Shown here piece after piece: positions 2,753-16,482 of a stretch of 31,377 nt of DNA. This DNA comes from a virus. The stretch lies in the UHGV virus genome UHGV-0092341; one strand, written 5' to 3'. The notes below the pieces were generated by a model. That model was not told the DNA's origin. It ran no database searches and saw only the letters and a list, made by a program, of their open reading frames with translations. The translations under genes and the position numbers were made by a program. How positions within the stretch are numbered: the first letter of the stretch is position 1; each line of letters starts with the position of its first letter.

Positions 2753-4522
2753 TCAGTTGCCGTTAACAATGCTGATAACACTGCTGCGGACCGGCGTGGT
2801 CAGCGTGGCCATGACTTCATCCAGTGCGGCTTCCGGTACGCCGTCCGGGTACTGTGCCGTTAACTGGCGGTAATGTTCCGGCGTCCAGGTAAGGCCGTCG
2901 GCGCTGAACTTATCGCGCAGGGCTTTCGCGGCCTCCACATGAGTCATGGGACGTTGTTCAGTGCGCGGCCCGCGTACGTCAGAGGCCTGACCACGCTTCG
3001 GCATATAGGCCGGAAGTGTGGCGTCATCAATATGTTTATACGGGTCAAGCCGCCCGCCGAACGGCAGCGCCTTCGCCTTGCGTGCGGCGGCTGCATCTGC
3101 GGCGTTGTCTGTACCGGTAACCAGCGCTTCGGTTTCTTTTGCCGCCATCTGTGCCGGGGTTTCCGGCAGGGCTTTGTAACTTTCGCCAAATACCGCCGCG
3201 CCTTCAGCAAAGCCAAACTCGTTCTTTCTGACCTCTTCGACCAGGAAGAACGTCTCGTGGCCGTCCTCACCGGTCAGAACCACCTGTGCCACATCGCTGC
3301 GCCATGGGTTACGGGTAATCATCAGTTTTTCACCAACCAGTACGCCCGGTACCGTTGATACGTCAAATTCAGTGCCCCGGAACGAGACACGAAGTTTTGG
3401 CGTGACTTTGCGGAGTTCTGGTGTCGCCACAGCCAGTTCACGGCATACCTCAACGGAAGGCGCTTTTTTCAGCTGCTCAGCAGTAATCTTCAGCCAGATA
3501 TCCGTGCGGGTTTTACCGTGGCGGCTGTGAACAGCCGTGGCGTTAAAGTGGCTGCGCCATTTCGCGGCCAGCGCGTTGAGTTCTTCCAGACTGTGAACCG
3601 GCCGGAACTTCAGACCCGGCTCCAGCTTGCGTTCGATAATGTCACGCGCCTTTTCCACCTGTCCGGTGGCGCGGGCGTTATGCGGCTTGTGTGCTATCAG
3701 GTCGATGCCCAGTGAGCGGCACATGTTTTTCGTCATACCCGCGGTGTTTGCCGAGCCGGGGTCGAGATAGAGTATTTTCGGCACGCCGTGCAGCACGTCT
3801 GCGCCGCCACGCTCCTGCATGGCGTTGATAAGCACAGAACACAGGTTCTCACCGGATTCCGCACCCGTCACATACTCAACGTAAATCCAGCCGCTGGCAT
3901 GGTCGGTAATCTCGTAACTCCACACGCGGTCACTGGCGATACGGGCAAGGTTAGCGGGCTTGTTCTTGTAGAACTTCGCGCTGTCCATCACCTGCAGTCC
4001 TTTGTGTCCATTACTCAGGTAGTAAAGCGTGCAGAGCGAGGCATCAATCTGCCAGACATGATTGGGATGCAGACTGGCCACTTCAGTATGTGGTGCAGGG
4101 GCATCCAGTTGTTCCGGGTGCAGGCCATAGTTACGCAGGGCTCGGCTGATGGCATCTTCGGACAACGGGAAAAACTCACCGGTGGTTTCATCTGTTCTGC
4201 CTGCGGAGATAAAGCCGTTAGCCCGCAGGGTTTCCACTGCATCCGCGATGGAATAGAGACGCTTACCGTTCTTGCGGGTGGCCTCACGCAGTGTGGCAGA
4301 TATCAGCGCGGCTTCGTCGCGGGTCAGGGCGCTGCGCCCGGCATCGGCGCGTTTTTTGCGTTTATCAGTCACAGAGACCTCCTTCAGCCTGCGCAGCAGA
4401 GTGGCGCGGGACATGCCAAGTTCAGCACAGGCAGCGTCGTATACTGCACCGCGTTTACCATGCCCCGCATTACGTGCCGCGCGGGCTGTTTCAACCAGTT
4501 TTTCAGTCAGTGCCGGGGTCAT
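2753..4522 (-). CDS. DDE transposase (MuA-like, rve/integrase core)
   Basis: 589 aa; HVWQIDAS-type first catalytic Asp region; N-terminal HTH-like segment; paired with B ATPase downstream; SD AGGGAAG upstream. Confidence 0.85.
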   Translation of the reverse strand: MTPALTEKLVETARAARNAGHGKRGAVYDAACAELGMSRATLLRRLKEVSVTDKRKKRADAGRSALTRDEAALISATLREATRKNGKRLYSIADAVETLRANGFISAGRTDETTGEFFPLSEDAISRALRNYGLHPEQLDAPAPHTEVASLHPNHVWQIDASLCTLYYLSNGHKGLQVMDSAKFYKNKPANLARIASDRVWSYEITDHASGWIYVEYVTGAESGENLCSVLINAMQERGGADVLHGVPKILYLDPGSANTAGMTKNMCRSLGIDLIAHKPHNARATGQVEKARDIIERKLEPGLKFRPVHSLEELNALAAKWRSHFNATAVHSRHGKTRTDIWLKITAEQLKKAPSVEVCRELAVATPELRKVTPKLRVSFRGTEFDVSTVPGVLVGEKLMITRNPWRSDVAQVVLTGEDGHETFFLVEEVRKNEFGFAEGAAVFGESYKALPETPAQMAAKETEALVTGTDNAADAAAARKAKALPFGGRLDPYKHIDDATLPAYMPKRGQASDVRGPRTEQRPMTHVEAAKALRDKFSADGLTWTPEHYRQLTAQYPDGVPEAALDEVMATLTTPVRSSVISIVNGN

Positions 4523-4537
4523 AGCTTGTCTTCCCTG

Positions 4538-4855
4538 TTATCCGATTCTGGCGGCAATTTTTCTGGCGAGGTCGCACAGTGTTTCGCCATCGCAGGCTTT
4601 CACCACGGTATTTACCGGTTGCGGTACAGCTACCGGGCGCAATGCTGACTGAGACTGCAGGCGTCTTATCTGCTGCATCAGCATCTCCTCCATCGTCAGT
4701 ACAAACGGGTGCGCCTCCTGTGCGGGTACGCAGATTTCACCGGAAGGGGTTACCACGCGGAAACCCTGCACCATTTCCGGCACCAGATTACACAGTGCGT
4801 GCCCCAGTGCCTCAGGGCTGTCCATCAGGATATTTTGTGTGTTATTCGTATTCAT
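4538..4855 (-). CDS. hypothetical early protein (105 aa)
   Basis: ORF in track; ATG overlaps stop of upstream 305-aa gene (coupling); 15 nt upstream of transposase. Confidence 0.5.
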   Translation of the reverse strand: MNTNNTQNILMDSPEALGHALCNLVPEMVQGFRVVTPSGEICVPAQEAHPFVLTMEEMLMQQIRRLQSQSALRPVAVPQPVNTVVKACDGETLCDLARKIAARIG

Positions 4856-6143: not shown

Positions 6144-6332
6144 TCAGGCTGCCTGAGCTGTTGATTTCAGCCCCAGTTTCACGGCGATTTCATGGGATTT
6201 ACCGTAACGGGCTTTGGTCTGCCCGTTGAGAACGCGGTATACCTCATTGCGGTTGTAGCCGTTTTCTTCTGCCCAGCGGGTGAACGTGATCCCGCGCTGG
6301 CGAAAGAGGGCTTTGACTTGTTCTGCAGTCAT
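6144..6332 (-). CDS. Ner/Cro-like small DNA-binding protein, first early gene
   Basis: 62 aa; strong SD AAGGAG; first gene of leftward operon, divergent from repressor as in Mu c/ner. Confidence 0.6.
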   Translation of the reverse strand: MTAEQVKALFRQRGITFTRWAEENGYNRNEVYRVLNGQTKARYGKSHEIAVKLGLKSTAQAA

Positions 6333-6432
6333 CGTTGTCTCCTTTGTTGATGCAATGATGTTTGCCTTATGTGTGATAGATTATGGTGCAGATTACCTCA
6401 CCAGTCAACTTAAAGAGTGCAGAAAAACTCAC
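6333..6432. promoter_or_regulatory. divergent early/repressor control region (promoters and operators expected)
   Basis: 100-bp AT-rich gap between divergent starts of Ner-like gene (6332) and repressor (6433); operators not mapped. Confidence 0.4.
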
Positions 6433-6771
6433 ATGATCGGGTTACGTATTAAAGAAGAAAGAGAGCGTCTATCTCTTACACAGCAAGGGTTGGCTGATGC
6501 TATAGGTGTGGCAAAGAGAACTTTCATTGATTGGGAAAAAGATCGCACTTCTCCTACTGCAGTGCAGTTATCTGCACTATCAGAAATCGGTGTAGATATT
6601 TTGTATGTAGTTACTGGGGTGCGGAGTCAGCCTGTTGTTGCACCGTATGTGTCACAAGAAAAGAAAGAGTTAATGGATGCATTCGACGAAATGAGCCCCG
6701 AACAACGGAGGGCAATTCTTGAGGTCGGCAAAGTCTTCATTCAACCAAAACCGAGCAAACTCGCAGGCTGA
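6433..6771 (+). CDS. XRE-family HTH repressor (c-repressor analogue)
   Basis: HTH LSLTQQGLADAIGVAKRTFIDWEKDRTSP. Start taken at ATG 6433 because the track's 6280 start would overlap the Ner-like gene. Confidence 0.65.
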   Translation: MIGLRIKEERERLSLTQQGLADAIGVAKRTFIDWEKDRTSPTAVQLSALSEIGVDILYVVTGVRSQPVVAPYVSQEKKELMDAFDEMSPEQRRAILEVGKVFIQPKPSKLAG

Positions 6772-6857
6772 TTCTGACCCGGACACAAAGGGCGCGTGGT
6801 TGATCTGGATGCTTTCAGAAAACATCGCCAGTGACATAGTGGAAGTTGTCTGGTTTA

Positions 6858-6884
6858 CCGGAAAGCATTGCGCTTTCCGGTTTT
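6858..6884 (+). terminator. rho-independent terminator-like hairpin (9-bp stem CCGGAAAGC/GCTTTCCGG, 5-nt loop, then TTTT)
   Basis: Read directly from sequence; lies between convergent repressor and methyltransferase 3' ends. Confidence 0.5.
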
Positions 6885-6887
6885 GCT

Positions 6888-7652
6888 TCAGAAGTTGCAG
6901 ATTACCAGTTCACGGCGCGGCGTGGGTTTCCCCGCCAGACTGTAGTTGATATTCACCGTCTGTATGTTCAGTTCAGTGAACACCCGACGCATCTGCGGAA
7001 TGTCGTTCACCGAGATAATCATCTTTCCTCTGATGCACCGGGCCAGTTCTGCGAGTAGTGTGTAGTTCTCTTCAGGAAAATCCACACCATAGCCTTCCGT
7101 CCCCAGATAGGGCGGATCACAGTAGAACAGCGTGTGCGGACGGTCATAACGCTTAATGCACTGGTGCCAGTCCATGTGTTCTATCACCGTTCTGGAAAGC
7201 CGCAGGTGTGCCGCTGACAGTTCTTCTTCAATACGTAGCAGATTGAAGCGTGGCGGAGATGTGGTGGAGGTGCCGAAGCTGTGCCCTGCCACCTTGCCAC
7301 CAAATGCCTGCTTCTGGAGGTAGTAGAACCGTGCCGCACGCTGGATATCCGTCAGTGTTTCTTCCGGGGTGATCTGCAGCCATTTGTAGATCTGCCGGCT
7401 GACCAGCGCCCATTTGAACTGGCGGATAAATTCTTCCAGGTGATGTTTTACCACCCGGTACAGATTCACCAGTTCACCATTGATATCGTTAATGACTTCG
7501 AGCTTGCCGGGAGTCTTGAGAAAATAGAGCGCAGCTGCGCCGCAGAACGGCTCCACATAACATTCATGCGCAGGAAACAGCGGCAGGATGTGTTTTCCCA
7601 GGCGGCGTTTGCCACCAATCCATGGAACGATGGGTAATGTCTGCGTTTTCAT
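6888..7652 (-). CDS. Dam-like N6-adenine DNA methyltransferase (D12 class), orphan
   Basis: 254 aa; motif I FCGAAA near N-terminus and motif IV DPPY (FYCDPPYLG) near C-terminus; no adjacent restriction-enzyme-like gene. Confidence 0.8.
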   Translation of the reverse strand: MKTQTLPIVPWIGGKRRLGKHILPLFPAHECYVEPFCGAAALYFLKTPGKLEVINDINGELVNLYRVVKHHLEEFIRQFKWALVSRQIYKWLQITPEETLTDIQRAARFYYLQKQAFGGKVAGHSFGTSTTSPPRFNLLRIEEELSAAHLRLSRTVIEHMDWHQCIKRYDRPHTLFYCDPPYLGTEGYGVDFPEENYTLLAELARCIRGKMIISVNDIPQMRRVFTELNIQTVNINYSLAGKPTPRRELVICNF

Positions 7653-7693
7653 AATCTGTAAGCCTTTTACAATTATTAAAAATATGGCAGGCT

Positions 7694-7794
7694 AGTCTGG
7701 TCTCGCGAGACTGACTGAACCTCGGTCGGCTCACAGCGCATTCCTGTGGGACGATGGCCAGCCCGGCTTTCGGGTGCCGGGCTGGTCGTTCTTT
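7694..7794. other. structured intergenic element: 12-bp perfect palindrome (7700-7711) plus 10-bp-stem GC hairpin (7758-7785) followed by T-rich tract
   Basis: Read directly; hairpin plus TCGTTCTTT resembles an intrinsic terminator in plus orientation although no plus-strand gene precedes it. Confidence 0.3.
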
Positions 7795-7841
7795 CATGAT
7801 GCGGCAGGGATAGTGGGATTTCTGTTAATGTGGTTTAGGGA

Positions 7842-8057
7842 TTATCCGGGGCGATTTTCTGACCTTATCTGGTCCAGGGCATAAGTGATCCCTTCTGCAA
7901 AAACAGAAGTATCAAACTGCTTTTGTATTTCCTGAAAATGAACAGTAGCACGACAGATACTCAGTTCTCCGCGATGTAACCGGATAATATCTTCCAGAAT
8001 ATTGTTCACTGCTTCAGCACGGCGCTGATGTTCTGTTAACGTTAATCGGGGATTCAT
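7842..8057 (-). CDS. hypothetical protein (71 aa)
   Basis: Perfect SD AAGGAG with 6-nt spacer before ATG at 8057; no motif recognised. Confidence 0.5.
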   Translation of the reverse strand: MNPRLTLTEHQRRAEAVNNILEDIIRLHRGELSICRATVHFQEIQKQFDTSVFAEGITYALDQIRSENRPG

Positions 8058-8460
8058 GATGCACTCCTTAAATGATGATTTTTATGTACTCACCGGCAAA
8101 ATATTCTGCCGATTACTGAACACGCATCCGGCACCTCAGGTTTTGATTTATTCTGGTTTTTTCGATATCCCGGACCAGGTTGATCACGACCAGAAAAAGT
8201 GCCGGTATTTTATTGATACGCTGATATGGCTTCGGGATAACAGCTATATTCGTTACTCTCAGTTGCTGGCTGTGGGAGCGGCTGATGTCGTCCTCACGGA
8301 AAAAACGCTCTGTCTGCTCAATGCCATGCCGACCTTTCTGCAGCCCCGGCCCGTACCATTTAAAGAGTTGCTTCTGGATGCAGTAAAAACCGGCGAAAAT
8401 GCAGTCATCGCTGAATGCGTATCCCGGATTATGCGTTACGTGTTTAATGAACGTAAGTGA
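8056..8460 (+). CDS. hypothetical protein (134 aa), AT-rich, nested antisense between two minus-strand genes
   Basis: Only long ORF across 8058-8435. Start codon overlaps the divergent 71-aa gene start; 3' end overlaps the P-loop gene 3' end by 25 nt. About 39% GC over the first 105 nt (hand count). Weak RBS. Confidence 0.45.
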   Translation: MMHSLNDDFYVLTGKIFCRLLNTHPAPQVLIYSGFFDIPDQVDHDQKKCRYFIDTLIWLRDNSYIRYSQLLAVGAADVVLTEKTLCLLNAMPTFLQPRPVPFKELLLDAVKTGENAVIAECVSRIMRYVFNERK

Positions 8461-9179
8461 GGTTTATCTGCTGTCTGCATAATCCCGATAGCCAGTGCGA
8501 GGGGAAGTAATTCCGGGGAAACTCTTTCAAACAGCGATGCCCATTCTCCTCTCGCCATCACTCTGTCCAGTCCGCCCCCCAGCTGCATTTCAGCAATCTT
8601 CCTGATTTCCCGGAACAACGCCGCTTTGATCTCTTCATGCTCAGCTTTATTTTCCGGTGTCAGAATGTATTCGTCGAAGAACCGGGGAAGCTGGTTAACG
8701 GGGATTGTGTTCACCGGGAGGTGTTCCTGCTTCCCGTACTTCGGGGCCGAAAAACATTCTGTTGGCTGACCGGTGAGTTTACGTAACTCCTTCATGAGCA
8801 GTTCCTGATCGTAAACTGTCATCAGTGCCGCAATGGTGGCATGCAGTGCATCGGGCAGTATCCAGGGTTGTCGGCCCGTGGGGCATATAACATCCAGCAG
8901 CTCATTCGTCCGACAGATACGCTCCTCGCCGTATGACAACAGGTCCTGTCCTGTGTATTCCTCCAGCCTGATCACTGTGCCAGCCCGTGGCTTCTGCCAG
9001 GTCGTCAGATCATCGCCACTCATACGGCGCTCATTCTCCACGTCAGCAGCATCGACAATGACGCTGTTTCCGAGTTCCTGTTTCACCACTTCCTCTATCC
9101 GCGCCAGTACGTAACTTTTACCGCTGCCCACAGGACCGGACACGGTGACAGTGATGACCGGATTCAGTGTATGTGTCAT
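8436..9179 (-). CDS. P-loop NTPase/kinase-like protein (247 aa), function unknown
   Basis: Walker A GPVGSGKS at residues 15-22, candidate Walker B VIVDAAD about 20 residues later; SD GAGGAG 8 nt upstream; divergent from late operon. Confidence 0.65.
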   Translation of the reverse strand: MTHTLNPVITVTVSGPVGSGKSYVLARIEEVVKQELGNSVIVDAADVENERRMSGDDLTTWQKPRAGTVIRLEEYTGQDLLSYGEERICRTNELLDVICPTGRQPWILPDALHATIAALMTVYDQELLMKELRKLTGQPTECFSAPKYGKQEHLPVNTIPVNQLPRFFDEYILTPENKAEHEEIKAALFREIRKIAEMQLGGGLDRVMARGEWASLFERVSPELLPLALAIGIMQTADKPHLRSLNT

Positions 9180-9237
9180 GTTGCATTCTCCTCTGTGAAT
9201 AATTCATCGTTTATCCTGCACATCCCGTATCCCCGGC

Positions 9238-9288
9238 TCTCTTAACGCGCTTTAAAATCCTTCGCGCCCTGTATTTGTGATGCTGTCT
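9238..9288 (+). promoter_or_regulatory. candidate late promoter P-lys (conserved bipartite motif, copy 1)
   Basis: TCTCTTAA-N4-CTTTAAAATC-N20-ATGCTGTCT, ending 22 nt before the first late gene; same architecture at three other sites. Confidence 0.5.
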
Positions 9289-9309
9289 CCACCAGACAAG
9301 GAGACACAC

Positions 9310-9660
9310 ATGAAAAACCTGAAAAAATTCATTCCCCCTGTTAAAAAACCTCGCCTCAGCGGCTGGCTGCTGACCTCAGTGCTGTTGCTGGGCACCATCG
9401 CTCTGGTCTCGCCACAGCAGTTGCCTGTTGTGATCTACAAGCTGGCACTCATCACGCTGGCAGCAGTGCTGGGTTACTGGCTTGACCGTTCGCTCTTCCC
9501 TAAAGCCCGTCCCGGTCAGTACCTGAAACATGAAGACAGGCTGATGGCTGATGGGCGTTTCCCTGTACAGACCGGCCTTCACCTGGTGTTTTCTGCTGCG
9601 TTAATCCGCCGTGCACTGATTGTTGCAGCAGTCTGTCTGGCCGTAGCGATGGGGCTTTAA
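9310..9660 (+). CDS. holin-like membrane protein (three predicted TM segments)
   Basis: SD AAGGAG before ATG 9310; three hydrophobic helices; first gene of lysis cassette, stop overlaps endolysin start. Confidence 0.55.
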   Translation: MKNLKKFIPPVKKPRLSGWLLTSVLLLGTIALVSPQQLPVVIYKLALITLAAVLGYWLDRSLFPKARPGQYLKHEDRLMADGRFPVQTGLHLVFSAALIRRALIVAAVCLAVAMGL

Positions 9661-16431: not shown

Positions 16432-16482
16432 TTTTCTAAAGCAGATTAAAATCGCCGGGCCTGCATTTCTCACAAACTGTCT
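16432..16482 (+). promoter_or_regulatory. candidate late promoter P-I (conserved bipartite motif, copy 2)
   Basis: TTTTCTAA-N4-GATTAAAATC-N20-AAACTGTCT, ending 27 nt before ATG 16509; upstream half weaker than other copies. Confidence 0.45.

Follow-up and report, generated by a model that had tools for sequence, protein, structure and literature searches.

Genes and flanking features of the locus

We analyzed the viral genome UHGV-0092341 over its whole length (31,377 nt, referred to below as the window), the source of which is a Bcepmuvirus-type (BcepMu-like transposable) prophage. Prophages ∼95% identical to it are present in ∼12% of complete E. coli genomes, and hosts of the family include ST131 and ABU 83972. 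The lysis cassette was found in 636 of 5426 E. coli genomes, and 494 of the 636 with the prophage family carried the full island that lies between the repressor and lysis genes. The four genes that the initial annotation had placed in this island were found at their positions, based on ORF coordinates and, for the methyltransferase, on a match to PF02086. The genes and flanking features are as follows:

6857-6881, + strand: intrinsic terminator after the repressor gene, a 10-bp stem followed by a T run (terminator scan)
6888-7652, - strand: orphan Dam-family (D12 class) N6-adenine DNA methyltransferase, 254 aa (PF02086, E 2.7e-27)
7653-7797, - strand: conserved structured 5' leader of the Dam mRNA, ∼145 nt (comparative alignment and folding)
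7842-8057, - strand: 71-aa protein (phrog_4490), cargo, co-oriented with Dam, SD AAGGAG
8056-8460, + strand: 134-aa protein (phrog_2266, E 1e-43)
8436-9179, - strand: 247-aa mosaic protein (phrog_3787), SD GAGGAG
9226-9309, + strand: late (Mor/C-type) lysis promoter region, CCCC...TTAAAATC (9252)...CTGTCTCC (9283)

Strong SD sequences had been assigned to all three minus-strand genes, and this was correct for the 247-aa (GAGGAG) and 71-aa (AAGGAG) genes, but the SD of Dam (AAAGG) is weak, and sits within a conserved RNA helix. The 134-aa ORF is not nested antisense within another gene, as had been thought, but lies between the 71- and 247-aa genes, overlapping the former by 2 nt at their divergent starts and the latter by 25 nt at their convergent ends. 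The 189-nt gap at 7653-7841 contains the conserved structured element.

On the left, the repressor gene ends at 6771, as annotated, and likely starts at ATG 6433 rather than GTG 6280. The 116-nt spacer between the repressor and Dam stop codons contains the intrinsic terminator, and constitutes a second variable cargo slot, in which relatives carry lipoprotein or other genes. On the right, the earlier estimate of a late promoter at 9238 was close, since the motif TTAAAATC was found at 9252; it is repeated in + strand intergenic regions at 16446, 22363, and 28648 (the search for the late motif, TTAAWATC, covered the + strand only). This promoter is divergent from the 247-aa gene, and the holin ATG follows at 9310. 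In a promoter scan, neither the 247-aa/71-aa/Dam unit nor the 134-aa gene showed a sigma-70-like promoter.

The island had also been described as compositionally foreign. This description fits the 71-aa and 134-aa genes (43% and 46% GC), and the reported hand count, 39% GC for the opening 105 nt of the 134-aa ORF, was exact (0.39), but overall the shift is modest and local. The island has 51.0% GC, below both the window (55.5%) and the late region (56.5%), and ranks 61st lowest among 582 sliding windows of the same size. Dam and the 247-aa gene are both at 53%, the early region is at 54%, and the repressor gene, at 45%, is as AT-rich as the 71-/134-aa pair. The GATC count was 91, against 119 expected.

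Dam is a conserved flank of a variable hotspot

The assignment of the 254-aa protein is supported by its PF02086 match (96.6 bits against a cut-off of 22, residues 11-234), as well as by phrog_56 (E 1e-97) and the PADLOC model MTase_II (E 6e-111); the score for TIGR00571 'dam', 111.4 bits, falls slightly below the cut-off of 114.85. DPPY is located at residues 179-182 (FYCDPPYLG, 176-184), and an FxGxG-type AdoMet-binding motif, EPFCGAAALYF, lies N-terminal to it near residue 35, giving the alpha motif order. Among solved structures, those of DpnM and E. coli Dam are nearest to it. The window enzyme belongs to the same Pfam family as T4 Dam, P1 Dam, and gp27 of the Burkholderia phage phiE125, to which it is 64% identical, and the phiE125 enzyme is reported to methylate adenine. 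A Type II restriction-modification system was considered and rejected, because no cognate endonuclease gene lies beside Dam; no restriction enzyme gene adjoins it, and no nuclease domain was detected in any ORF of 6700-9300. Dam is bordered on the left by the terminator and repressor gene, and on the right by the leader and 71-aa gene.

Dam homologues were found in 145 phage records. By direct comparison, Dam is 78-82% identical at the amino acid level in Serratia and Citrobacter/Salmonella relatives, and it is retained in Klebsiella phage KP12 and in other E. coli relatives regardless of which cargo is present. One E. coli variant is without Dam, the 71-aa gene, and the 134-aa gene. Thus, the methyltransferase is not part of the cargo, as had been proposed, but a conserved flank of the hotspot, fixed in the Escherichia, Serratia, Salmonella, Citrobacter, and Klebsiella relatives. 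It may provide the phage's own DNA modification and anti-restriction function, as a counterpart of mom in Mu.

The proposal that the slot is a variable hotspot was borne out by 77 related IMG/VR loci, in which 246 to 2556 nt separated the start of Dam from the divergent holin. At minimal spacing the hotspot is empty and Dam stands alone (36 of the 77 loci), with the lysis late promoter ∼250 nt from the Dam ATG in cargo-free relatives; window-type cargo is present in 11, and most of the other filled loci carry unrelated small genes, with at least 24 other clusters of small proteins represented. The Serratia slot reads 89 aa, 139 aa, 73 aa, Dam; in Citrobacter/Salmonella the order is a 291-aa mosaic, 86 aa, 113 aa (opposite strand), Dam; and another Salmonella slot has a 364-aa mosaic followed by Dam. 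In KP12 and two E. coli variants, Dam stands by the holin alone or with one unrelated gene. The lysis late promoter is the right-hand boundary of the hotspot, and these comparisons support the view that the 247-, 134-, and 71-aa genes are cargo placed between it and the leader.

This variability bears on the possibility that the 247-, 134-, and 71-aa proteins are unnamed regulators of the lysis or late program, or of transposition, and are thus core phage functions. Their position next to the lysis late promoter, the presence of the full island in 494 of 636 E. coli genomes with the prophage family, and an identical gene order in Serratia would fit such a role. However, the cargo is missing from about half of related loci, leaving Dam ∼250 nt from the holin, unrelated genes take its place in relatives from Salmonella, Citrobacter, and Klebsiella, none of the three genes is in BcepMu itself, and the PhiKM relative has its annotated Mor/C late activator at another location. 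Conservation at this position, which would be expected of core genes, was found for Dam only, and we regard a core role for the other three as very unlikely.

A defence module that includes the methyltransferase had also been suggested, but each gene was found without the others, and none of the 71-, 134-, and 247-aa proteins matched a defence or anti-defence family in PADLOC, Pfam, or NCBIfam, with zero matches to PADLOC-DB v2.0.0 for the 71- and 134-aa proteins. In its broader form this reading would join the methylase to the P-loop protein and its small partners in a single integrated system, of a BREX/DISARM/MADS style in which methylation is linked to self/non-self recognition, or of a modification-dependent abortive kind. 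The genes are indeed adjacent, with three on one strand separated by short gaps, and they occupy a hotspot; the methyltransferase has a weak PD-Lambda-5_B match (E 4e-16), and the 247-aa protein has marginal matches to SngB, mad8, and HerA (E 0.01-0.04). The PADLOC matches of the 247-aa protein, however, cover its Walker-A stretch only and are far below significance, the best matches of the methyltransferase are to generic Type II/orphan models, and there is no nuclease, helicase, or complete ATPase. Nor are the components co-inherited: 36 of 77 loci have Dam by itself, the mosaic gene is also seen where the 71-/134-aa genes are lacking, the 71-/247-aa genes occur without the 134-aa gene, 134-like genes are present in unrelated phages, and a truncated N-domain protein was found without Dam. 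We consider a single integrated system highly improbable.

The arrangement resembles that of lambdoid 'morons' and of the P2 and P4 prophages, which are said to carry defence hotspots, in that a fixed site flanked by conserved genes accommodates many alternative small genes in either orientation, some of them AT-rich. In contrast to these cases, half of the related loci are empty, the window cargo matches no known defence or anti-defence family, and the Dam-strand cargo comes from a single pool of shuffled modules, not from complete systems. Weak defence-like matches were obtained for the cargo of relatives (a 2TM effector, E 0.005; KwaA-like, E 8e-5).

The three cargo genes

The 247-aa protein is composed of three parts:

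8955-9179, - strand: N-terminal mini-domain of 75 aa, with the motif GPVGSGKS at 9114-9137
8637-8954, - strand: middle region
8481-8636, - strand: C-terminal module (aa 182-233), matching the product of a stand-alone 89-aa Serratia gene

In an exhaustive HMMER analysis, 54 representatives shared just residues 1-75, followed by shuffled modules, some of which are stand-alone Dam-sense genes within the same hotspot; in an E. coli variant the protein is cut at about aa 158, at a recombination junction. Naming it a P-loop protein goes too far, since what it has is a Walker-A-like motif in the N-domain, and none of the AAA and other NTPase models reached threshold. GPVGSGKS is present in this protein and most relatives, and is replaced by GKN or altered glycines in several (P0051, P0074, and P0076). 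A complete P-loop NTPase of the AAA+, ABC, KAP, or other type was rejected, because no NTPase model matched at threshold across Walker A, Walker B, and the core sheet. The N-domain model (pLDDT 85.7) gave no fold match, and the full-length model was unusable (pLDDT 42).

The 71-aa family was seen only in BcepMu-like phages of E. coli and Serratia, where the Serratia homologue occupies the same position and is 36% identical, and the protein had no PDB or Pfam match. The 134-aa protein has a winged-helix-like sequence pattern, and its Serratia homologue is 53% identical and differs by in-frame indels; a relative with 53% identity bears the source name 'DUF2513'. Assignment to DUF2513 or a YjcQ-like family was rejected, because the Pfam model was not matched and 'DUF2513' is a label of the source only: the 134-aa protein, the Serratia homologue, and a 27% identical paralogue inserted in E. 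coli M-17 had no Pfam match even at E 10, and the YjcQ match of one distant relative was weak (E 0.083). The gene is deleted to 18 codons in one locus (L031), and unrelated phages carry relatives that are 29-31% identical, one of which (L029) lies on the opposite strand beside the tail tube gene, downstream of a tape-measure-like minor tail gene. The 134-aa ORF is a real gene that is separately mobile.

The head-to-head starts of the 71- and 134-aa genes (2-nt overlap in E. coli, 1 nt apart in Serratia) raise the possibility of a two-gene unit, acting as toxin and antitoxin or as regulator and target, in which each promoter would lie within the coding sequence of the other gene and the 134-aa protein would repress divergent transcription of 71-aa/Dam. 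The two genes are more AT-rich than those around them, and their joint acquisition is probable. A functional pair is nevertheless unlikely, because some phages have lost the 134-aa gene by a clean deletion yet retain the 71-aa gene, the 126-aa M-17 paralogue has no 71-like partner, distant 134-like genes have different neighbors, no toxin-antitoxin family was matched, and the 71-aa family is limited to this phage group.

As cargo, the two Dam-sense genes might be co-transcribed with Dam and serve as host-takeover or counter-defence factors in the lytic phase, and the 134-aa gene might be expressed separately, with a regulatory or exclusion role. No terminator is evident for the 134-aa transcript ahead of the lysis promoter, which would be awkward for a gene expressed in the lysogen.

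A structured leader precedes the Dam gene

The covariance-model match to the leader extends over 7650-7797, including the Dam ATG at 7650-7652. Its elements, in the order in which they are transcribed, are listed below, with P1 also given as it reads on the other strand:

7758-7785, - strand: P1 hairpin
7750-7795, + strand: P1 read on the other strand, a GC-rich stem followed by GTTCTTTC
within 7743-7749, - strand: P2 5' arm, CACAG, pairing with CUGUG inside the anti-SD across a 7-nt loop
7728-7736, - strand: anti-SD, CUGUGAGCC
7688-7723, - strand: P3, with its tip GUCUCGCGAGAC at 7700-7711
7665-7682, - strand: P4
7656-7664, - strand: SD region, GGCUUACAG

We collected 79 distinct versions of the leader from upstream of Dam homologues, and aligned 48 non-redundant sequences. 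The long-range helix between anti-SD and SD was predicted by RNAalifold unprompted, and 99.3% of its cells were paired. Over the leader as a whole, 93.5% of cells were paired, compared with 31-49% in slid controls, compensatory changes were found at 12 pairs, and the score was reached by 0 of 500 shuffles. The long-range helix, P3, and P4 showed a G.U asymmetry of 144 to 6 in favor of the Dam-sense strand. Folded as a single sequence, the leader had an MFE of -54.2 kcal/mol (z = -4.5), and this fold likewise contained the anti-SD/SD helix.

Because the collection pattern itself prescribed the 3' strand of the anti-SD/SD helix (AAAGGCTTAC.G), the invariance of this strand in the alignment is partly by construction; this bias is mitigated by loci that were reached via their proteins, and by the Pseudomonas phage UMP151. 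The covariance model matched upstream of Dam in UMP151 (63 bits), in Burkholderia phiE125 (32.5 bits), and in Stenotrophomonas phiSHP3 (22.9 bits). UMP151, which was outside the pattern-based selection, shows compensatory changes in P2 as well as in the anti-SD/SD helix; P2 is invariant in Enterobacteria, so that its covariation was assessed from UMP151 and phiE125 only. No Rfam match was obtained with 4227 covariance models over the whole window at gathering thresholds, matches within 7500-8000 were at chance level (E ≥ 0.55), and we found no description of this leader for orphan phage Dam methylases such as phiE125 gp27, T4 Dam, and P1 Dam. The leader is a structured RNA that had not been catalogued before, and its structure is supported by covariation.

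The asymmetry of P1 runs the other way, with wobble pairs favoring the + strand by 63 to 18, and a T-rich tract past its stem is conserved (invariant AAAGA.CG in the Dam sense). P1 is probably also an intrinsic terminator, halting transcripts that run rightward out of the immunity region before they reach the cargo and lysis genes; we infer this role, because a simple terminator scan gave no call for P1. The same two observations, together with a promoter-like TTTTCA-16-TACAAT at 7646-7673 (+), could indicate that all of 7653-7797 is a + strand feature, either a small RNA antisense to the start of Dam or nothing more than a read-through terminator. However, 144 G.U cells of the long-range helix, P3, and P4 would become A.C mismatches on that strand, against 6 in the reverse case. 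Furthermore, the promoter-like site is not conserved in other leader versions, an SD and ATG invariably mark the exact end of the element, and a terminator alone would leave 100 conserved and covarying nt beyond P1 unexplained. We consider the + strand interpretation quite unlikely, and the conserved structure better assigned to the Dam mRNA.

Possible gating of Dam translation and comparison with Mu

According to the predicted structure, the anti-SD (CUGUGAGYC) is paired with the SD region and spacer GGCUUACAG, whose unpaired probability is at most 0.06, and the ribosome-binding site of the modification gene would be occluded. The upstream CACAG would compete for CUGUG by forming the local hairpin P2, making the two helices mutually exclusive. 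In folding predictions P2 appears in nascent RNA of 75-130 nt, and forcing it costs just 3 kcal/mol, suggesting that P2 may fold first on the nascent RNA and be displaced after the SD region is transcribed. If P2 forms early and is then displaced, Dam would be translated briefly, or only with a factor that holds the open form. The leader may thus gate translation of Dam as a mom-like anti-restriction methylase, or alternatively it could act on RNA stability or processing.

Leaders that sequester an SD and exert long-distance translational control are found in the MS2 maturation gene and hok mRNA. The leader described here shares with them the opposition of an anti-SD/SD helix and an earlier-forming local hairpin, and differs in being a computational prediction.

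In Mu-like prophages, com occurs with a Dam-related adenine methyltransferase that replaces mom, and these enzymes shield DNA from many restriction enzymes (2012, PMC3299994). The mom function is harmful to the host and under tight control, and in Mu the modification gene is held back post-transcriptionally by RNA structure at the ribosome-binding site (PMC3299994). Like Mu, the window phage is a transposable phage with a DNA-adenine modification gene and no restriction partner. In UMP151, a distant relative, a Com gene lies between leader and Dam (PF10122, E 2.9e-23), and in Curvibacter TJ1, likewise distant, a Com-like ORF, recognized by eye only from a CxxC...CPRC pattern, sits between Dam and a degenerate version of the leader, also seen by eye only; in both, a Dam of the same family lies directly behind a Com-type gene. 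In contrast to Mu, the window is without com, as neither tblastn nor a six-frame CxxC...CxxC scan detected a Com-like ORF in it, and the PhiKM annotation shows no com for the left end of the phage (∼3-4 kb beyond the window). In addition, the enzyme is an ordinary D12 Dam-family methylase rather than Mom, the leader is a 145-nt multi-helix element located upstream of the first gene, and its covariance model found no match in the Mu com-mom region.

Taken as a whole, the segment probably has two parts, a conserved Dam with a structured leader that gates it, and a variable insertion hotspot that holds a three-gene cargo. More tentatively, it is possible that the leader represents an undescribed class of phage riboregulator and that Dam and the cargo form a lytic-phase counter-defence operon, two readings that are compatible with each other. 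Such a riboregulator class would be widespread among gamma- and betaproteobacterial phages, in some cases coupled to Com, with anti-SD and anti-anti-SD helices gating a potentially toxic methylase, and com-less phages using another trigger. The Dam-sense cargo would then be a set of freely recombining modules (the Walker-A mini-domain and at least 8 others), each countering a different host defence.

Implications

The prophage family is present in about one of eight complete E. coli genomes, so these "hypothetical" genes have been annotated thousands of times. A methylase that serves as a fixed anchor next to swappable cargo offers a clean route to mining this site for accessory functions, and the module-shuffled 247-aa family, for which neither a fold nor a function is recognized, would be inexpensive to include in screens for phage defence. 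The leader combines strong comparative support with the lack of an Rfam family. If it does gate translation, the com/mom paradigm of Mu would be extended to ordinary Dam-family enzymes in many unrelated phages, and the silencing of these enzymes in lysogens would be explained.

Prophage setting and composition of the island

The window belongs to a BcepMu-like (Bcepmuvirus) transposable prophage. Over 2.6 kb round the flagged island (6888-9179), identity is 94.5% with Escherichia phage PhiKM and reaches 95.7% with E. coli chromosomal prophages. The lysis cassette was found in 636 of 5426 complete E. coli genomes, and at least 80% of the island length is present in 494 of these 636. The four open reading frames of the island lie at the positions assigned to them by the initial annotation, in the following order.

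Left end, minus strand: early genes (gam, B-like ATPase, transposase, DUF3102 protein, IclR-like protein, Ner-like protein)
Right of the early genes, plus strand: HTH repressor
6888-7652, minus strand: Dam-like methyltransferase (Dam)
7653-7797, minus strand: structured RNA leader, 5' of Dam
7842-8057, minus strand: 71-aa protein
8056-8460, plus strand: 134-aa protein
8436-9179, minus strand: 247-aa protein
Right of the island, plus strand: lysis genes (first the holin, ATG 9310), head and tail genes

The 134-aa frame, which had been described as nested, shares 2 nt with the start of the 71-aa gene and 25 nt with the 3' end of the 247-aa gene. The island was also thought to be AT-rich, and its GC content (51.0%) is indeed below that of the window (55.5%) and of the late region (56.5%), but the 71-aa (43%) and 134-aa (46%) genes carry the deviation. 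At 53%, Dam and the 247-aa gene are close to the early region (54%), and the repressor (45%) is as AT-rich as the two deviating genes.

The mechanical frame of the repressor runs from GTG 6280 to 6771 and overlaps the Ner-like gene (6144-6332, minus strand). Since its homologues have 116-121 aa and the HTH begins at residue 52, the true start is probably ATG 6433 (112 aa). A promoter-like TTGACT-17-CATAAT at 6408-6380 on the minus strand would be a candidate early promoter. The proposed late promoter before the lysis genes was recovered as CCCC...TTAAWATC...CTGTCTCC 5' of the holin, with TTAAAATC at 9252. There are four copies of this late-promoter-like TTAAWATC on the plus strand (9252, 16446, 22363 and 28648), all intergenic and ahead of the lysis, head and tail gene blocks; of these, at least the first two have a C-run on their 5' side and, ∼25 nt beyond them, CTGTCTCC. 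The set mirrors the four late promoters of Mu that depend on C. For the 247-aa/71-aa/Dam unit and for the 134-aa gene, no sigma-70 site was seen that was convincing or conserved. One related BcepMu-like phage genome, a 40.5-kb circular record from E. coli JCH8249, is filed as 'plasmid unnamed', and could represent an excised form, a replicative form or an assembly artefact.

Dam anchors a hotspot of variable cargo

The methyltransferase is a clear D12/Dam-family enzyme (PF02086, E 2.7e-27; PADLOC MTase_II, E 6e-111), as had been proposed, and no nuclease gene adjoins it. The 247-, 134- and 71-aa proteins fall into PHROG families without function (phrog_3787, phrog_2266 and phrog_4490, respectively), and match no family, whether of defence, anti-defence or other kind, in Pfam, NCBIfam or PADLOC; a word-indexed homologue search for the cargo proteins returned close relatives only. 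Comparison of the slot across related phages bore out the suggestion of a variable hotspot, with cargo absent, swapped or rearranged from locus to locus, but not the idea of a single module that includes the methyltransferase, because its parts are inherited separately.

Gene order in the window and related loci, from the holin side to the repressor side
Window and major E. coli type: 247 aa, 134 aa (opposite strand), 71 aa, Dam
Serratia: 89 aa, 139 aa (opposite strand), 73 aa, Dam
Citrobacter/Salmonella: 291-aa relative of the 247-aa N-terminus, unrelated 86 aa, unrelated 113 aa (opposite strand), Dam
Salmonella: 364-aa relative, Dam immediately after
Klebsiella phage KP12 and two E. coli variants: Dam adjoins the holin, or is accompanied by one unrelated gene
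E. coli AR_0015: Dam, 71-aa and 134-aa genes absent; two plus-strand genes after the repressor; 158-aa truncated N-domain protein kept
One IMG/VR phage: Dam, 71 aa and 247 aa retained; 134-aa gene cut to 18 codons
E. coli M-17: additional 126-aa paralogue of the 134-aa gene and second copy of the Dam 5' end
BcepMu itself: three unrelated plus-strand genes

To gather loci, a short pattern at the start of Dam was used, and 91 of its 106 matches have a Dam homologue immediately downstream, the other 15 being chance matches. Upstream sequence of at least 1.5 kb was available for 77 loci, and in 75 of them the divergent holin lies 246-2556 nt from the Dam ATG; 36 have no cargo (the minimal Dam-holin spacing of 246-264 nt), 11 hold window-type cargo, and the rest hold other genes. 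The cargo proteins of 23 sampled loci, which have 45-250 aa and are encoded in either orientation, form at least 24 clusters, and one IS transposase is also present. Cargo on the Dam strand again consists of pieces of the mosaic family to which the 247-aa protein belongs. Opposite-strand cargo differs from this and includes a 192-aa protein that probably corresponds to the 188-aa DUF2441 protein of KP12 (PF10386, E 1.1e-6), a two-TM protein with a weak PADLOC 2TM-effector match (E 0.005), and 108-119-aa proteins to which no type was assigned. In one IMG/VR locus (L093), the hotspot insert was judged by eye to hold an IS3-family transposase fragment. From the separate inheritance of the parts and the 77-locus survey, we conclude that Dam is the conserved anchor of an insertion hotspot, and that the 247-, 134- and 71-aa genes are its cargo.

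In E. coli M-17, a 634-bp insertion relative to the window (3953-4776 of that locus) holds the 126-aa paralogue, a second Dam leader copy that is 74% identical, and a remnant of the first ∼16 Dam codons. The presence of this leader copy and codon remnant points to exchange of cargo by recombination inside the Dam 5' end and leader.

The cargo proteins

When 1.84 billion representative proteins were searched exhaustively with HMMER, 54 matched the 247-aa protein; nearly all of these cover residues 1-75 alone, and the sequences come chiefly from Salmonella and Citrobacter. In these relatives the N-terminal unit is followed by varying combinations of at least eight recognisable modules, several of which match further PHROG families without function, and some of which are stand-alone genes within the same hotspot; the Serratia 89-aa protein aligns only to residues 182-233. 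The initial annotation had called this a P-loop protein. A Walker-A-like GPxGSGKS is usual among the relatives, but it is not invariant (GKN in several), and no NTPase model reaches threshold, the matches spanning only ∼40 residues. The full-length AlphaFold2 model, from a shallow alignment, was unusable (pLDDT 42). Residues 1-80 were modelled confidently (pLDDT 85.7), and against solved and viral folds this model matched only an uncharacterised 82-aa viral protein (30% identity, E 0.02), which is probably a homologue. Taken together, the shared residues 1-75, the shuffling of modules, the variable Walker-A motif and the sub-threshold NTPase matches identify a mosaic protein with a minimal phosphate-loop-like domain rather than a demonstrated ATPase. 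E. coli prophages with different cargo align to the window only from 8714 rightwards, and encode truncated N-domain proteins of 141-158 aa labelled 'ABC transporter ATPase'; their match from this position on places a recombination junction inside the 247-aa gene.

An open reading frame antisense to its neighbours might be an artefact, but the 134-aa protein has a homologue in Serratia (53% identical, indels in frame), the M-17 paralogue (27% identical), and relatives in unrelated phages (29-31% identity). One of the latter, in a myovirus, lies on the opposite strand beside the tail tube gene, 3' of a tape-measure-like minor tail gene. Because relatives occur in unrelated phages among other neighbours, the gene appears to move on its own, which also argues against an artefact. 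Its conserved pattern is F..L.G.IF.RL...P ... WL...GY ... LT.KGL..LNA.P, and the protein looks like a winged helix; family support for this is limited to the source label "DUF2513" and, in one relative, a YjcQ match at E 0.083. Only the E. coli and Serratia phages carry the 71-aa protein, which had no match in family or PDB searches, and profile searches of the PDB with the 134-aa and 71-aa families found nothing.

A covarying RNA leader precedes Dam

The 71-aa gene and Dam are separated by 189 nt of sequence that is conserved together with Dam irrespective of the genes upstream, and 79 distinct versions of the leader were recovered. Structure was evaluated in 48 non-redundant sequences. Unguided RNAalifold gave the hairpins P1 and P4, a long P3, and a long-range helix that pairs CUGUGAGYC (the anti-SD strand, CUGUGAGCC at 7728-7736 in the window) with GGCUUACAG (7656-7664), which comprises the GG of the SD and the spacer ahead of the AUG. 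Paired cells made up 93.5%, versus 31-49% in controls with the partners slid by 1-3 columns, and the covariation score was 0.213, which 0 of 500 shuffles reached, versus 0.025-0.051 in the slid controls. Compensatory changes were seen at 12 pairs. In the long-range helix, the 3' strand was set by the pattern used to gather loci and the 5' strand was free to vary, and loci found through proteins agree with the helix. Strand-diagnostic G.U pairs in the long-range helix, P3 and P4 favour the Dam-sense strand by 144 to 6, so these are features of the Dam mRNA. In P1 the bias is reversed (18 Dam-sense versus 63) and a T-rich tract follows on the plus strand, and P1 therefore probably also terminates rightward read-through.

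An invariant CACAG lies 7 nt 5' of CUGUG and is able to form a local hairpin, P2, that is mutually exclusive with the long-range helix. The predicted minimum free energy structure of the window leader is the closed form (-54.2 kcal/mol, z = -4.5), and GGCUUACAG is unpaired with a predicted probability of at most 0.06. P2 is present in predicted nascent transcripts of 75-130 nt, and forcing it is predicted to cost only 3 kcal/mol. The tip of P3 (7700-7711) is a perfect DNA palindrome, GTCTCGCGAGAC, and other leader versions carry different palindromes there (GTTCTCGAGAAC and GTCATCGATGAC); this could be a candidate protein-binding site at the DNA or RNA level. The leader family is absent from Rfam, and known riboswitches, including the SAM and SAH classes, gave no Rfam match.

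Relation to com and mom of Mu

A search with a covariance model built from the leader gave further occurrences, which lie in phages of quite different types. The leader was found immediately 5' of a Dam homologue in Burkholderia phage phiE125 (32.5 bits) and Stenotrophomonas phage phiSHP3 (22.9 bits), and in Pseudomonas phage UMP151 (63 bits), which has CUGCAAGCC as anti-SD, GGCUUUGCAG on the SD side and GCAG as P2 arm, changes that are compensatory in both competing helices. In UMP151 (1189-1500 of the locus compared) the leader AUG starts a Com zinc-ribbon gene (PF10122, E 2.9e-23), and Dam is next. Curvibacter phage TJ1 (∼1160-1530) has a degenerate leader, a Com-like ORF identified by eye, and then Dam; its annotated 51-aa ORF begins too late, the real start being an upstream ATG (MEIVRCGRC...).

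In Mu, Com is the translational activator of mom. Expression of mom harms the host and is under strict control, and there are Mu-like prophages in which com is accompanied by a Dam-related adenine methylase that replaces mom and shields DNA from many restriction enzymes (PMC3299994). The covariance model had no match in Mu, which argues against homology of the leader to the mom region. No com was found in the window, and the 71-aa protein is a poor candidate for a Com analogue, having a single cysteine and no zinc ribbon and being missing from most leader-bearing loci. In the enterobacterial phages the leader adjoins Dam itself, and Dam begins with codons (ATGAAAGA...) that are similar to the start of UMP151 com. 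A putative loss of com by deletion would account for this arrangement.

A second variable slot

Besides the hotspot, the slot from the repressor to the Dam 3' end is variable (6772-6887 in the window, and seven of the related loci: L004, L009, L015, L017 and L035-L037). In the window it is empty save for a terminator at 6857-6881. Relatives carry there a YecR-like protein (PF13992) with two small proteins whose N-termini appear lipoprotein-like by eye, a 328-aa and 193-aa pair, a 312-aa gene, or a 401-aa protein with a weak KwaA-like match (E 8e-5) paired with an NA37 nucleoid-associated protein. Because these genes share the repressor strand in several relatives, they may be expressed in the lysogen.

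Implications

The island does not demonstrate a new defence system. Phages were already known to carry orphan Dam genes and accessory hotspots and to restrain their DNA modification after transcription. Recognition of the Dam-anchored site as a rich cargo hotspot appears new, as does the leader, a widespread and covarying element that Rfam lacks and that did not turn up in the literature that could be searched. The comparisons show how the genes are arranged, that the hotspot and the mosaic family exist, and that a covarying structured leader is associated with Dam and sometimes with com. Our confidence is high in the architecture; it is moderate for translational gating of Dam by the leader, and low for any function of the cargo genes.

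We propose that translation of Dam would normally be shut by the anti-SD helix and opened in a transcription-coupled window or by some factor, and that P1 would keep read-through from the immunity region out of the cargo and lysis genes. The 134-aa gene may be a self-contained unit with a regulatory or exclusion function. The 247-aa and 71-aa genes would share a leftward transcript with Dam and supply lytic-phase accessory factors, and since modules shuffle between near-identical phages, our best guess is that they act in counter-defence. During lytic growth, the methylase would modify phage DNA and thereby blunt restriction.
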